DNA from: an uncultured virus (IMG/VR IMGVR_UViG_2061766007_000671)
Taxonomy: Duplodnaviria; Heunggongvirae; Uroviricota; Caudoviricetes
Length of the DNA: 20,000 nucleotides
Virus record (IMG/VR): IMGVR_UViG_2061766007_000671
Reading direction: 5' to 3' (one strand)
Shown here: positions 2,282 to 15,184 of the stretch, piece by piece
How the letters are laid out: every line of letters starts with the position of its first letter
Numbering within the stretch: the stretch's first letter is position 1
Notes under the pieces: generated by a model
The model's database searches: none
The model's input: only the letters and a program-made list of their open reading frames with translations
What the model was told of the DNA's origin: nothing
Translations under genes and position numbers: made by a program

Positions 2282-2658
2282 ACGGCGTTCACCGCCTTTT
2301 CGATGGCCTCGATCTTGCGATTGATTTTGTCGCGCTGGGTACGAAGGTCAACGTACTCATAGTTGCCCGCATCCCACGCAATGAGATCGCCGTCATGGTA
2401 TTCCTCCGGCATCTCAAAGCAGCTCTCCCAGTTGTGGATAGCCCGGAAAAGTTCGACGGCTTTCTCCTCGTTGCGAATGACGAAATACATGAACTTTTCA
2501 TATACTTCGTCCAACCTGAACGGGATGATGTTAAACTCGTCATCAAGAAAGATGACGGCTTCATTGGCGTCGTCGAACCGATGCTCGTAGGCGTAGCAAT
2601 CCGCCTCGGAGTAGAACTCTTCTCCGTCATCTGCGACGTATGTGATTACTTTCTTCAT
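2278..2658 (-). CDS. Hypothetical phage protein (126 aa, YVADDGEEFYSEADCYAYE)
   Basis: ORF with AAGGAG RBS; N-terminal 'YxAxDGxxFxxExxCxxYE' pattern. Confidence 0.75.
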   Translation of the reverse strand: MKKVITYVADDGEEFYSEADCYAYEHRFDDANEAVIFLDDEFNIIPFRLDEVYEKFMYFVIRNEEKAVELFRAIHNWESCFEMPEEYHDGDLIAWDAGNYEYVDLRTQRDKINRKIEAIEKAVNAV

Positions 2659-2692
2659 GCTTTCACTCTCCTTATCTCCTTTTATTAATTGA

Positions 2693-2825
2693 AACTACAC
2701 ACAAATTCAGCGTTGGCATTCCTTTCGGATTCTCGCTTCAACGATCACCGCCTGCACTTGCGAGGTCTTACACGATCTCCACGAGCGTTGGGTTTGGGTG
2801 TGCCCCACCCTACCGTATCTGAAAG
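2693..2825 (-). ncRNA. TnpB omegaRNA/reRNA (scaffold to ~2713, predicted guide 2712-2693)
   Basis: Non-coding stretch directly 3' of tnpB with IS200/IS605-type scaffold motifs GTAGGG...ACGCTCGTGGAGA..GTAAGAC...CGTTGAAGCGAGAATCC; hairpin GGGTG-GGGCA-CACCC whose loop can pair with 3' TGCC(AA). The true 5' end may lie inside the CDS. Confidence 0.7.
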
Positions 2826-3941
2826 CTACGCCAACAGGCGCAGACCCTCATTTAAGATGTTTGTTGCGGCGTTGATGTCACGGTCGTGGACAGTGCCGCA
2901 TTCCGGGCAGACCCACGAGCGGACGTTCAAATCCTTTGTGTCCTTGTTCTGGTAGCCGCAGTGGGAACATAGTTGGCTGGACGGGAAGAACCTGTCCACC
3001 ACGGAGATTGTTTTGCCGTACCACGCAGCTTTGTAATCCAACTCTCTGCGGAACTCGTAGAACGAAGCGTCGGACACAGCCTTGGCAAGATGATGGTTAC
3101 GGCGCATACCGTCAGCGTTCAAGTCCTCAATGCATATCACATCGTAGTTGCGTATCAATTCCGTAGTCAGTTTCTGCATATTGTCTCTCCGCTGATTGGA
3201 AATGTGTTCATGCAACCGTGCGACCTTGACGCGCTGCTTTTCCCAACGCTTGCTCCCCTTTGTTTTTCGAGAGAGTTCACGTTGTAGACGCGCTAAACGC
3301 TTCTCGGCTTGATAGGTGTATCGGTTGTTAGGATACTTCACTCCATCCGATGTGATAGCCAGGTCTTTGATACCGAGGTCAACGCCTACCACTGCGTCAG
3401 TTTTGGGAAGAGGATTGATCTCTACATCAGTGCAACAGACAGATACATAATATTTTCCAGATGGGAGCTTTACTATTGTTGCGTGAGTAATCCTACCATG
3501 CACGTCTTTACTTCTGGAAAACCGTATCATACCAACTTTCGGGAATCGTATGTAGTTACCCTCTATCCGAATTCCATTACTATTATTTGAAGATGTATAT
3601 GACTGACGATTTCTTTTTTTGGTTTTGTACTTTGGAAAACCCTGCCGTGTGAATTCGTGATTGCAGGCCAAGAACCTGCTAAACGAATCTTCCAAATTCT
3701 TTAGTGCCCACTGTAAGGAGGTTGAGTCTGCATCCTTGAGCCAGGGGTATTCTGCCTTTAGGGGCCGCAAAAGACTCGCACACTCATAATAATTGAGCGT
3801 TTTTCTATACTCCTTGTACTCCAAAATTCTACGTTCAAGAAAGTAGTTAAATACAAACCTCGCACAACCAAACATTTTTTCGATTTCCACTTCCTGCTCT
3901 TTGTTTGGGTATAGTCGAAACCGATACCTACAATAACTCAC
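2826..3941 (-). CDS. tnpB: RNA-guided endonuclease TnpB (IS200/IS605/IS1341 family), 371 aa
   Basis: N-terminal [11 protein letters not shown]...[10 protein letters not shown]; RuvC-I GVDLG, RuvC-II IEDL, zinc finger CSHC...CPEC, Ruv[12 protein letters not shown]; all three catalytic acids present. Confidence 0.95.
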
Positions 3942-4135
3942 GAACTACCCTCCCGTGCGTCTTCGTCTTCTTCGCAACAACGAACTGGCGGATGACGGTC
4001 TCTGAATTTGTGCTGTCGGTTTTGTCTGCACCAATCGCATGAGCCGTGGTTGCGGCAGGTGCAGTCGATGGCTTTGCTCCCACGGTACATCTGCCGCTTT
4101 TCTTTGTGGTGCTCTATAGCTTTATCAAGGCTCAT
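3938..4135 (-). CDS. Small Cys/His putative zinc-binding protein ([14 protein letters not shown]...[10 protein letters not shown])
   Basis: ATG 4135 with GAGGT RBS; CxNHGxCxxC motif; stop overlaps tnpB GTG start (GTGA). Confidence 0.7.
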
Positions 4136-4145
4136 GACGGATACC

Positions 4146-4354
4146 TCAAATGAAATCATCAAGTTTCATTTTCTTTTTTCGGCTTTGCTTTTTCAGGTCT
4201 TCCAAAAACTCTGGAACATTTATCATATACTTTGCCCCCGTCTTAATGTGGGGGATTGTTCCGTTCCTTACACCTTGACGAAGGTAGCACATAGATAACC
4301 CTGTGAGGTCGCTTACATCCTCTAACTTCGCAAAGTACACTTCTTTTTTGCCAT
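4146..4354 (-). CDS. Excisionase-like (HTH_17/MerR-type) DNA-binding protein; start ambiguous or frameshifted
   Basis: LEDVSDLTGLSMCYLRQGVRNGTIPHIKTGAKYMIN fits the xis-family winged HTH; the RBS-preceded ATG (4354) is out of frame by -1. Confidence 0.7.
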
Positions 4355-4371
4355 GTTTGTACACTCCTTTC

Positions 4372-5301
4372 TTATTTGTTGAACACATTTGCCACAGCCA
4401 TCGCCGGGGCGTTCACGCTGAACCGTGCGGCGTAGATCTTCGTGGTCGCCACGCTTGCGTGACCCATCGTCTCGGAGATCAGCTCCATCGGCACGTTGTT
4501 CTCCAGAAGCACCGACGCATAGCAGTGGCGCATGGCGTGGGAGCGGCAGGACTTGTCCTCTCCAAGCACCGCCTTGGTGTAGTACTTGATGCGCTCGGAC
4601 AGTTCCACCCTGGTCATCTGATTCCAGTTCCCACGCTTGTCCACAGAGCCGAAGAGCCAGTCTTCATCCCCGGCGGTACTCGGACGCAGACCGCTCTCCA
4701 GATACGCTCTCACGGCGTTCTGTGCCGCCTGAGAGAAGACCACGGCGCGGGGCTTGTCGCCCTTGGTGTCCTGCGGAAACGCCACGCCGTTCTCCCAATC
4801 CAGATCGCACGGACGGAGAGAACGAATCTCGGAGTTGCGAAGCCCCGACTGGAGAAGCATCGTGACCTCTGCCTTTTCGCGCAGCCATGTGGGAGATTTC
4901 CGGCCATGCGTCGGCTTCTCGCAGTTGATGAGAACCTCGGCATCCTCATCCGTGAGAACGTGCTCATACGGCTTGCTCCGCTCCGTGTTCAGCTTCTTCT
5001 TGGAGGGCATCATGTCCTCGTCGAAGAACGGCGCGTCCACGATCTCGCGGCTCACGGCGCGGTTGGACAGCGCCCGGATGTGCGTGAGGTACAGCGCCAG
5101 AGAAGTTGCCTTGACACCTGCGTTGTCTGCGAACTTCCACACCGCGTCCATGCAGACATCGGCGTATCCGTTGCGCTCCATGCTCTCACGGAGCAACTGG
5201 AACGTCTTTGTGTAGCTCTTGATACTGTCCGCAGACAGTTCGTTGCGCTTCATGGTGGTCACATAGGCTTCCACAGCCCTATCGTATTTTTCAAACATCA
5301 T
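4372..5301 (-). CDS. Tyrosine recombinase/integrase (XerC/D-like, 309 aa)
   Basis: Catalytic motifs SGLRNSE (R), TKGDK (K), SHAMRH (HxxR), MGHASVATTKIY (H, Y); AAGGAGAGG RBS. Confidence 0.93.
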   Translation of the reverse strand: MMFEKYDRAVEAYVTTMKRNELSADSIKSYTKTFQLLRESMERNGYADVCMDAVWKFADNAGVKATSLALYLTHIRALSNRAVSREIVDAPFFDEDMMPSKKKLNTERSKPYEHVLTDEDAEVLINCEKPTHGRKSPTWLREKAEVTMLLQSGLRNSEIRSLRPCDLDWENGVAFPQDTKGDKPRAVVFSQAAQNAVRAYLESGLRPSTAGDEDWLFGSVDKRGNWNQMTRVELSERIKYYTKAVLGEDKSCRSHAMRHCYASVLLENNVPMELISETMGHASVATTKIYAARFSVNAPAMAVANVFNK

Positions 5302-14435: not shown

Positions 14436-14840
14436 TTAAAATTCGCACCACGAACGCCCGTGCCGCACCGCATTCTCCGGGAGAGGATACGGGACGCATT
14501 CCTGTGGGGCTTCTAATATGTATCCCCACTTACCCTTGCCACGGCAGTCGTGCTTACTTCCCCAAGGGACAAGCGTGTCCTCCCGGTACATATCCCATAG
14601 GTCAGCGGGAATGAATTCTGCATCACTGATATACACAGTGCCAACGACGGTCGGCTTTTTACCCCGCCCGGTGCTGACTACGGCCACGCGCTCACCAACC
14701 AACGCGCGGAGCATGTTCTTGGAGCGCGTCTCCATGGTCTTATTTCCCCTCATGATTTCCTCGACATAGGTAGACTCAAAGCATCCTGCCCATGTCACCA
14801 ATCTTAGGCGTTCGTCATTGTTGATGAAGAATCCCTTCAT
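14436..14840 (-). CDS. Second ASCH-like domain protein (~134 aa)
   Basis: YVEEIMRGNKTMETRS carries the GxKxxExR signature, plus VVGTV and WGYIL; GAGGAGGTG RBS before ATG 14840. Confidence 0.75.
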   Translation of the reverse strand: MKGFFINNDERLRLVTWAGCFESTYVEEIMRGNKTMETRSKNMLRALVGERVAVVSTGRGKKPTVVGTVYISDAEFIPADLWDMYREDTLVPWGSKHDCRGKGKWGYILEAPQECVPYPLPENAVRHGRSWCEF

Positions 14841-14851
14841 TCCGCACCTCC

Positions 14852-15184
14852 TCAGATGAAGTCGGAGACGCTCATGCCCGGAGCGTCCCACGGATTTGCA
14901 GAGCTGTAGTCGCCCCCGGTGACGGAGCGGATGTACTCCTTTTCCCAAGGGTCTACATACTCCTCCCAGTCATCTCCGTAGGGGTCTTCCTCCGTTTCCT
15001 CGGCCTCGCTGACCTCGCCCAAAAGGTTAAAGAAGATGTTAGTGCATCCACACTCTCGCAACTCCCGGAGACGGTTGTCCAGTTCTTCATTAGTGCCGAC
15101 GAAGAATTCACTCTCGTTTTCCTCGTCGGGGAAGAATCCATTCACGTCGTGCCAGTCCCGGATGATTTCCCACTCGTAGCGCAT
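14852..15184 (-). CDS. Very acidic hypothetical protein (110 aa)
   Basis: AGGAGGTG RBS, TGATG coupling. Confidence 0.7.
   Translation of the reverse strand: MRYEWEIIRDWHDVNGFFPDEENESEFFVGTNEELDNRLRELRECGCTNIFFNLLGEVSEAEETEEDPYGDDWEEYVDPWEKEYIRSVTGGDYSSANPWDAPGMSVSDFI

Follow-up and report, generated by a model that had tools for sequence, protein, structure and literature searches.

The question raised by this locus is what a TnpB protein does in a phage when its nuclease appears complete and the parts that could move its gene are gone. The DNA analysed, called the window throughout, is a stretch of 20,000 nucleotides (nt) from the uncultured-virus record IMGVR_UViG_2061766007_000671 of IMG/VR, and its minus strand carries a tnpB gene, the scaffold of an omegaRNA and a 16-nt guide, together referred to as the module (Table 1). 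The initial annotation, made from the letters alone, is confirmed in all its coordinates and motifs. It had held that mobility was lost and RNA function kept, leaving a fixed, phage-encoded RNA-guided nuclease, and the missing transposon ends and the covariation of the scaffold support this view. We give roughly even chances to the reading that the module is an immobilised, nuclease-competent TnpB with a hard-wired guide against rival phages, i.e. an RNA-guided free-standing homing or exclusion nuclease. The more specific proposal, that a natural nuclease-active TnpB serves here as a free-standing RNA-guided homing or exclusion endonuclease with an internal 16-nt guide, and is self-protected by codon changes that remove the target-adjacent motif (TAM), is put forward tentatively, at somewhat below even chances.

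The module is immobilised

None of the 49 open reading frames (ORFs) of the window matches Y1_Tnp, and a tblastn search of all its frames with three TnpA proteins of related loci gave a best E-value of 0.84, in agreement with the initial annotation, which had seen no tnpA. For the comparison of ends and scaffolds, relatives of the TnpB were drawn from a 185,579-species set of genome contigs. The tnpA gene lies directly upstream of tnpB in L015, L021 and L025, and also in L001, the one tnpA-bearing relative found when viral contigs were scanned with TnpB. Five relatives (L015, L016, L018, L025 and L043) have a left-end hairpin 15–17 nt after a TTTAT or TTTAC; in the window, no left-end hairpin preceded by a TAM is present upstream of tnpB, and there is no TAM 5' of tnpB on the strand of tnpB itself.

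The absence of room for a left end had also been pointed out initially, from the overlap of the GTG start of tnpB with the TGA stop of the Cys-rich gene upstream, and the GTGA in question is located at 3941–3938. The putative ribosome-binding site of tnpB is a GGGAGGG located 7 nt before this GTG. The 57 nt that precede the overlap show no match to any left end or locus compared. The Cys-rich gene belongs to a family with 283 homologues at E≤0.001, in which acidic tails of the same kind are native in P0133, P0147, P0128 and L124, and comparable native tails read ..RDKRPPVEED, ..RDRLPPEREDEE and ..RDRHQAEEGE*, the last with a stop that overlaps the start of the next gene. A scan of viral contigs with a pattern of the Cys-rich gene added seven distant loci, which show native tails too. 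Judged from these homologues, the 57 nt are no transposon left end but belong to a conserved phage gene as its native tail. The start of tnpB is thus exactly where a downstream phage gene would start, and tnpB is translationally coupled to the gene before it. An early candidate, 3998–2675 as a single insert with the 57 nt as its leader, was ruled out because the leader is the native tail of the Cys-rich gene.

The right end has been altered as well. In elements of this kind the subterminal hairpin of the right end is the binding site of the Y1 transposase TnpA. The seven same-scaffold relatives that have a left end or a tnpA (L009, L015, L016, L018, L021, L025 and L043) all read GAATCCCC..TTTAG..GGGGAGTGTCAA here, bearing out the earlier statement that a typical right end carries a long GC hairpin, and the conservation among them ends right after TCAA. 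The window reads GAATCC-GAAA-GGAA-TGCCAA at 2732–2713, with 13 nt of the hairpin missing and the remaining 3' arm changed at five of eight positions (compared by eye with L018 and L021 in the scaffold alignment). What is left is the 3-bp stem with a GNRA loop that had been described at first, at the same coordinates. It is a natural example of omegaRNA minimisation, in which a GNRA-capped stem replaces the TnpA hairpin.

Copies that are mobile and have such a short hairpin were looked for among the relatives and none was found: the seven with a full hairpin have tnpA or a left-end hairpin, and the two others with a reduced hairpin, L002 and L003, have neither a left end nor extra copies. In L002 (3577–3712) the GC-rich hairpin is reduced to CCCC-ACGG-GG, with the pseudoknot of the scaffold compensated as in the window, and in L003 (3585–3719) to an AT-rich stub. 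Both are without a left-end hairpin within 260 nt and are the only TnpB match in their metagenome-assembled genomes; the genome of L018 has 13 (counted per genome, 13 matches in G003 and one each in G001 and G002). L002 and L003, the closest genome matches, lie among prophage-type genes (Sak, CI/Cro-like, PDDEXK).

That the window contains an ordinary, still mobile insertion of the IS200/IS605 family, with the DNA to its right as guide, is hardly credible. In its favour, the window has a TnpB and an omegaRNA scaffold of this family, but tnpA, the left end and the right-end hairpin are gone, the cleavage motif is mutated, a TAM is lacking 5' of tnpB on its own strand, and in the relatives without tnpB the upstream flank does not run into the guide. 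The module is immobilised, and its guide is therefore fixed.

The omegaRNA scaffold and the TnpB protein

The covariance alignment of the scaffold that the initial annotation had called for comprises ten sequences and contains 31 pairs. Standard pairs fill 95.7% of the cells, compared with 32–46% when the partners are slid, and 11 pairs have changes on both sides; none of 500 shuffles attains these values. The pseudoknot between TGCC and GGCA, suggested earlier, is among the covarying elements: pair 50-160 is A-U in seven sequences and G-C in two (the window and L002), so that in the window, as in L002, an A>G in the pseudoknot loop compensates the T>C in TGTCAA. The single-sequence fold has a z of -0.78, and no Rfam family matched the scaffold. 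The covariation and the compensated pseudoknot indicate an RNA kept under selection, while the hairpin and the TCAA needed by TnpA are gone.

A second possible terminus, GTAGTTTCAA (2698–2689), is found 15 nt after the scaffold end. It resembles the B-type terminus GTAGTTCAA of L010, L017 and L019, and overlaps the end of the 20-nt guide first annotated. As the true end of the scaffold, a possibility that had been raised for the TTCAA in it, this sequence was rejected since the pseudoknot covaries with the TGCC at 2718–2715, which favours an end at TGCCAA (2713).

The TnpB protein shows the Pfam domains HTH_OrfB_IS605 (E 2e-16), OrfB_IS605 with the RuvC fold (9e-29) and Cas12f1-like_TNB (6e-25), all above the curated cut-offs, and its nearest solved structure is the ISDra2 TnpB (8H1J/8BF8, E 2e-96). 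The three RuvC acids noticed at the outset, D188 (GVDLG), E272 (IEDL) and D355 (DRD), are invariant in an alignment of the window protein with 38 homologues (39 sequences), and so are the zinc-finger residues C325, C328, C345 and C348. Neither the dead RuvC site nor the truncated C-terminus that characterize TldR is thus found, and the protein is of full length. The homologue P0002 is 89% identical without gaps. Two contigs from other studies carry tnpB at the same place, X5 (2623–3954, 53 differences) and X6 (2654–3560 and 3595–4087); indels in their tnpB copies occur only as paired +1/-1, and the ORF remains open in copies that are 4–11% diverged. Their gaps all fall outside the right end, so the short hairpin is common to both and the right end has the same length.

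Across the family the N-terminal half (residues 1–170) is far more variable than the C-terminal half (alignment A1). The window TnpB is 38–51% identical to its relatives, all except P0002, in the N-terminal half and 74–92% in the C-terminal half; among the other members the corresponding values are 49–86% and 84–90%. We take the N-terminal half to be the reader of the TAM and the heteroduplex. The divergence by halves suggests either modular exchange or fast N-terminal evolution. X5 and the window share 98–99% identity in the phage backbone but only 96% in tnpB, and the tnpB differences are common to X6 (e.g. 2863, 2916–2919, 3108–3114 and 3135), including the paired +1/-1 indels. This pattern suggests an exchange of the C-terminal half of tnpB, either on the side of the window or on that of X5 and X6.

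From the open ORF in diverged copies, the compensated pseudoknot, a hairpin that is remodelled and not merely deleted, and the translational coupling, we infer that the module is probably still a working nuclease.

The guide and its near-target in related phages

Twelve related contigs from metagenomes of the Joint Genome Institute (JGI) were collected by their integrase (79–91% amino acid identity), and six of them cover the tnpB site. None of these 12 rumen contigs, including the six, has a tnpB. The Cys-rich gene passes directly into the downstream gene in L083, L084, L089, L090 and L091, where the sequence reads ..CA(C/T)AAATTCAGAGATAAGGAG.., and in the last four the Cys-rich domain and the downstream gene form a single in-frame ORF of 178–182 amino acids; L085 has a different small ORF at the site. 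In five relatives the upstream gene joins at a point 34–38 nt past the scaffold end (..TTCAGAGA joined to TAAGGAG..), and the 16 nt are absent in that orientation. The guide is thus not a flank in the usual sense, and an ordinary empty site, where the upstream flank would be joined to the guide, was not found among the related phages. A search with the fused ORF in 400 genomes of the class of G001 gave four distant matches, none informative on the site. In X7, a further contig from other studies, which has no tnpB, 2307 is joined to 4043 with 414 other letters. The upstream gene of X6 is L084-like beyond 4087 and its downstream gene diverges at 2654 (loose ends placed by eye); to judge from these switches, at about 4087 and 2654, the module of X6 is set with its short flanks in another backbone.

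A junction between sequence modules lies at the HKFRD(K/R) codons of the Cys-rich gene (window 3999–4015 and 2659–2678; L083–L091; P0122–P0147). In the relatives these codons are followed by direct fusion to the downstream domain, by a 150-nt extra ORF (L085, P0122 and P0134) or by varied acidic tails. The extra segment of the window is flanked by a 4-nt GAGA repeat.

The 16 nt that follow TGCCAA are a near-copy of the antisense strand of the same codons in the relatives without tnpB. The match is 13–14 of 16 in all six, it starts exactly in the guide register, and TTAT stands directly 5' of it in five of the six, which is the outcome of a check proposed at first, a comparison of the guide with related phages and a search for a common 5' TAM. 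The location of the guide after TGCCAA was thus given correctly by the initial annotation, but not its length of 20 nt (2712–2693), as the homology ends after 16 nt (2712–2697). The near-target lies on the opposite strand about 1.3 kb from the guide, in the neighbouring gene. TTTAT or TTTAC flanks the left end in five A-type and seven B-type loci. In the cited part of PMC8612924, the mature guide on ISDra2 TnpB is about 16 nt, and TTTAT is given as the experimentally determined TAM of ISGst2 TnpB2 in the cited part of bioRxiv 10.1101/2023.03.14.532601.

As a control, all 19,985 16-mers of the window were compared with the antisense strands of the six relatives. A match of 14/16 or better occurs somewhere for 201 of them, but in four or more relatives for a single 16-mer, which starts at 2712 and is also alone in having TTAT directly 5' in at least three. 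No other match of the guide of at least 12/16 with TTAT is found in the window, and a native inverted copy 3' of the Cys-rich gene is present in none of 12 tnpB-less loci of the gene family, a comparison for which the seven distant loci from viral contigs were of use. Arguments from an 11-mer were given up. A test of the 11-mer (P of about 0.001 for an 80-nt junction region) was weakened once the leader had turned out to be a native tail, and was replaced by the 16-mer control; inverted matches of 11/12 arise by chance in two of 12 control loci, and an 11-mer alone proves nothing.

The carrier's own copy of the target (4015–4000) matches the guide at 12 of 16 positions and is preceded by acggt; the codons are GAC CGT where the relatives have GAT AAG. 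As for a homing endonuclease, the near-target is found in a conserved neighbour gene of relatives that are without tnpB, and the carrier's own allele differs. In X6 the carrier copy has a synonymous TTC>TTT at window 4004, which would add a mismatch at guide position 5.

If the module works as we suggest, the operon transcript would yield an omegaRNA with the fixed 16-nt guide, and the TnpB-omegaRNA complex would recognise TAM and target in co- or superinfecting relatives without the module and cut them, while the carrier would be spared, its TAM being gone and its match poorer. The break might lead to the death of the rival (exclusion), or it might be repaired from the carrier genome, in which case the module and short flanks would be copied into the rival as in homing. 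A competing element was one of the targets considered at first, and the near-match in the neighbouring gene of rival phages is in line with this. With a competing phage as the likely target, the module would be selfish or competitive rather than host-serving, and of the original label "domesticated TnpB" the immobilised, intact TnpB stands but the word "domesticated" may be wrong.

Several points weigh against this proposal. None of the six target alleles sampled agrees with the guide at position 2, beside the TAM, and each has at least one further mismatch. The CTTAT of the relatives has four of the five letters of TTTAT, and ISGst2 TnpB2 is described as highly sensitive to TAM mutations in the cited part of bioRxiv 10.1101/2023.03.14.532601; the TAM of the window TnpB is itself deduced from relatives whose N-terminal halves are only 38–51% identical. 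L002 and L003, the other hairpin-less copies, show no guide match of at least 12/16 within their own loci. Promoter and terminator signals near the module are no higher than in shuffled sequences, and the proposal offers no route by which the guide became internal and antisense. Finally, the phage status of the window rests on limited evidence, namely the integrase, a few PHROG matches and related contigs of viral type.

The register and the TTAT suggest that the guide goes back to an ordinary insertion made by TnpA on the antisense strand of a gene of the Cys-rich type, and that a subsequent rearrangement retained only the guide. An alternative that is unlikely but has to be taken seriously stops there: the module would be a decaying, non-autonomous element of IS605/IS1341 type, an old TnpA insertion at TTTAT| antisense in a Cys-rich gene that was rearranged together with 16 nt of its former flank and, having lost its ends, would now be a functionless passenger, with an ORF and RNA that look intact through recent decay or hitch-hiking. 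The register and the TTAT beside the match are exactly what an ordinary insertion leaves and fit both readings equally, the guide mismatches every sampled allele at position 2, and the locus is a known mosaic hot spot, all of which agree with decay. Decay accounts less well for a retained flank of exactly guide length, for a carrier copy without TAM, for the compensated pseudoknot change, for the remodelling of the hairpin to a GNRA mini-stem in place of a simple deletion, for an ORF open in copies 4–11% diverged and with paired indels, and for the translational coupling of tnpB to a phage gene. The immobilised nuclease and the relic may also be stages of one history.

A fixed guide might also serve an active ribonucleoprotein with another job, directed at host DNA, a defence locus or an unrelated element, pairing at the RNA level within the operon transcript (processing or translation), or binding without cutting as TldR does. 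There is a precedent in prophage TldR, where according to the cited part of bioRxiv 10.1101/2023.11.30.569447 fixed-guide TnpB derivatives regulate host genes and a phage paralogue escapes by TAM and seed changes, and the guide is complementary to the transcript of the upstream gene. Such a role is nevertheless improbable, as the RuvC triad and zinc finger are intact, unlike those of TldR, the only near-match found is a rival allele with a TAM-like motif, this match is located in a coding region and not in a promoter, and no other match of at least 12/16 with TTAT occurs in the window.

Genomic setting and known systems

The genes of the window follow one another on the minus strand, are small and for the most part without annotation, and gave a few PHROG matches; public sequencing runs place the window in bovine gut metagenomes. 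The integrase and the small gene just downstream of it, which from its position and sequence may be excisionase-like, mark a temperate element (4146..5301), and the window is treated as temperate phage-like on these grounds. The best explanation is that the module is wired into the early operon of such an element from the bovine gut. GenBank phages contain no near match to the window, the best TnpB match being 52% identical, and scans of viral contigs for the downstream protein, the integrase or the pattern of the right end gave no match. The X5 contig skips 252 nt (window 4126–4379), has 15 other letters there and lacks the small gene downstream of the integrase. Elsewhere in the window, ORFs at 900–1400 and 14436–14948 both match phrog_3136, of unknown function (E 3e-26 and 1e-4), and are possible paralogues within the element.

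Table 1. Positions of the module, its parts and neighbouring genes in the window, with the matches to the guide.
Feature	Position	Strand	Remarks
Downstream gene, 126 residues	2278..2658	-	from comparison with relatives
AT-rich spacer and ribosome-binding region AGTTTCAATTAATAAAAGGAGATAAGGAGAGTGAAAGC	2659..2696	-	homology to tnpB-less relatives resumes at GAGATAAGG (2678)
16-nt guide CGCTGAATTTGTGTGT	2697..2712	-	near-copy of antisense strand of HKFRDK codons in tnpB-less relatives
TGCCAA	2713..2718	-	mutated counterpart of conserved right-end terminus TGTCAA
omegaRNA scaffold ending TGCCAA	2713..2850 (5' limit approximate)	-	alignment A3 and covariation; overlaps 3' end of tnpB
Mini-hairpin UCC-GAAA-GGA	2720..2729	-	replaces the 8–9 bp TnpA-binding subterminal hairpin
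Hairpin GGGTG-GGGCA-CACCC	2796..2810	-	pseudoknot between loop G2804-A2801 and U2718-C2715, with G2803-C2716 as compensated pair
tnpB	2826..3941	-	371 residues, GTG start; RuvC D188/E272/D355 and CxxC..CxxC intact
Cys-rich small phage gene, 65 residues with acidic tail	3938..4135	-	from homologue search
Acidic-tail-encoding 57 nt (last 19 residues of Cys-rich protein)	3942..3998	-	judged native phage sequence; no hairpin
Carrier's own target-like copy	4000..4015	+	12/16 to guide; reads ACGGT, against CTTAT in relatives
Small gene just downstream of integrase	4146..4388	-	Pfam none; PHROG of unknown function
Tyrosine integrase	4372..5301	-	profile matches (Pfam/PHROG); marks temperate element
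Match in L084, L089, L090 and L091			antisense, 14/16 to guide; cTTAT directly 5'
Match in L083			antisense, 13/16 to guide; cTTAT directly 5'
Match in L085			antisense, 14/16 to guide; tttgt directly 5'

Full-text searches, which covered a limited collection of papers, listed none on an immobilised phage TnpB that has kept its nuclease, has no ends and carries its own guide against a neighbour gene of rival phages. The topics found there are the homing of TnpB at empty sites, IStrons, a plasmid gene drive and TldR, and one review names phage co-infection homing as a concept. The known TnpB systems have two poles, mobile elements with a guide from the insertion flank and domesticated derivatives (Cas12, TldR) with dedicated guides, and an immobilised, catalytically intact TnpB with an internal guide against rivals would, if true, sit between them, as the intermediate so far missing on the way from selfish transposon homing to dedicated RNA-guided weapons. 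Phages would then use TnpB as the T-even phages use protein homing endonucleases, and the guide of a natural TnpB could become fixed and retargeted with no CRISPR array involved and with nuclease activity preserved. The filled, empty and self-immune alleles would form a natural series for testing homing against exclusion, and for TAM and seed tolerance. Should the guide be a dead relic, the locus would still be a clean record of an insertion sequence (IS) that lost both ends while its RNA was kept.

Compared with the TnpB of IS200/IS605 elements (ISDra2, ISGst2 TnpB2), the window protein has the same domain set, RuvC triad and zinc finger, the scaffold likewise overlaps the 3' end of the gene with the pseudoknot beside the guide, and the guide of about 16 nt and the family TAM TTTAT agree with what the cited parts of the sources give; the logic would be shared too, with an insertion-bearing allele that is immune and the other allele as target. 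Unlike these elements, the window has no tnpA, left end or TnpA hairpin and its end motif is mutated, its guide is inside the module and is not whatever adjoins on the right after insertion, and its near-target is not its own empty site but lies in a neighbour gene, on the other strand and at a distance of about 1.3 kb. The spread of IS elements between replicons by TnpB, termed 'transposon non-restorative homing' in the cited part of PMC13565253 and including the plasmid gene drive of PMC11870625 (cited part), is similar in that an RNA-guided cut of the element-less allele is followed by copying from the element-bearing one, as proposed for the window, but those cases, as described there, have intact IS ends and a flank-derived guide in canonical orientation.

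TldR, according to the cited part of bioRxiv 10.1101/2023.11.30.569447, is also phage-borne, has lost tnpA and both the left and right ends, and has a fixed adjacent guide, and the phage's own related sequence escapes by changes in TAM and seed. It differs in that TldR, in that account, no longer has a RuvC site and acts as a repressor at a host promoter, whereas the window TnpB has intact catalytic residues and its near-match is a coding segment of rivals. The free-standing homing endonucleases of the T-even phages (Seg/Mob), whose activity is called 'intronless homing' in the cited part of PMC13565253, are also close in arrangement: they share with the window a gene wedged between conserved phage genes, a target (here a near-target) in a conserved neighbour gene of endonuclease-less relatives, the sparing of self by substitutions, as proposed here, and a patchy distribution with short co-transferred flanks. 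Unlike Seg/Mob, with which the module is likened here on sequence only, recognition in the window would be by a 16-nt RNA guide and a TAM, not by a protein.

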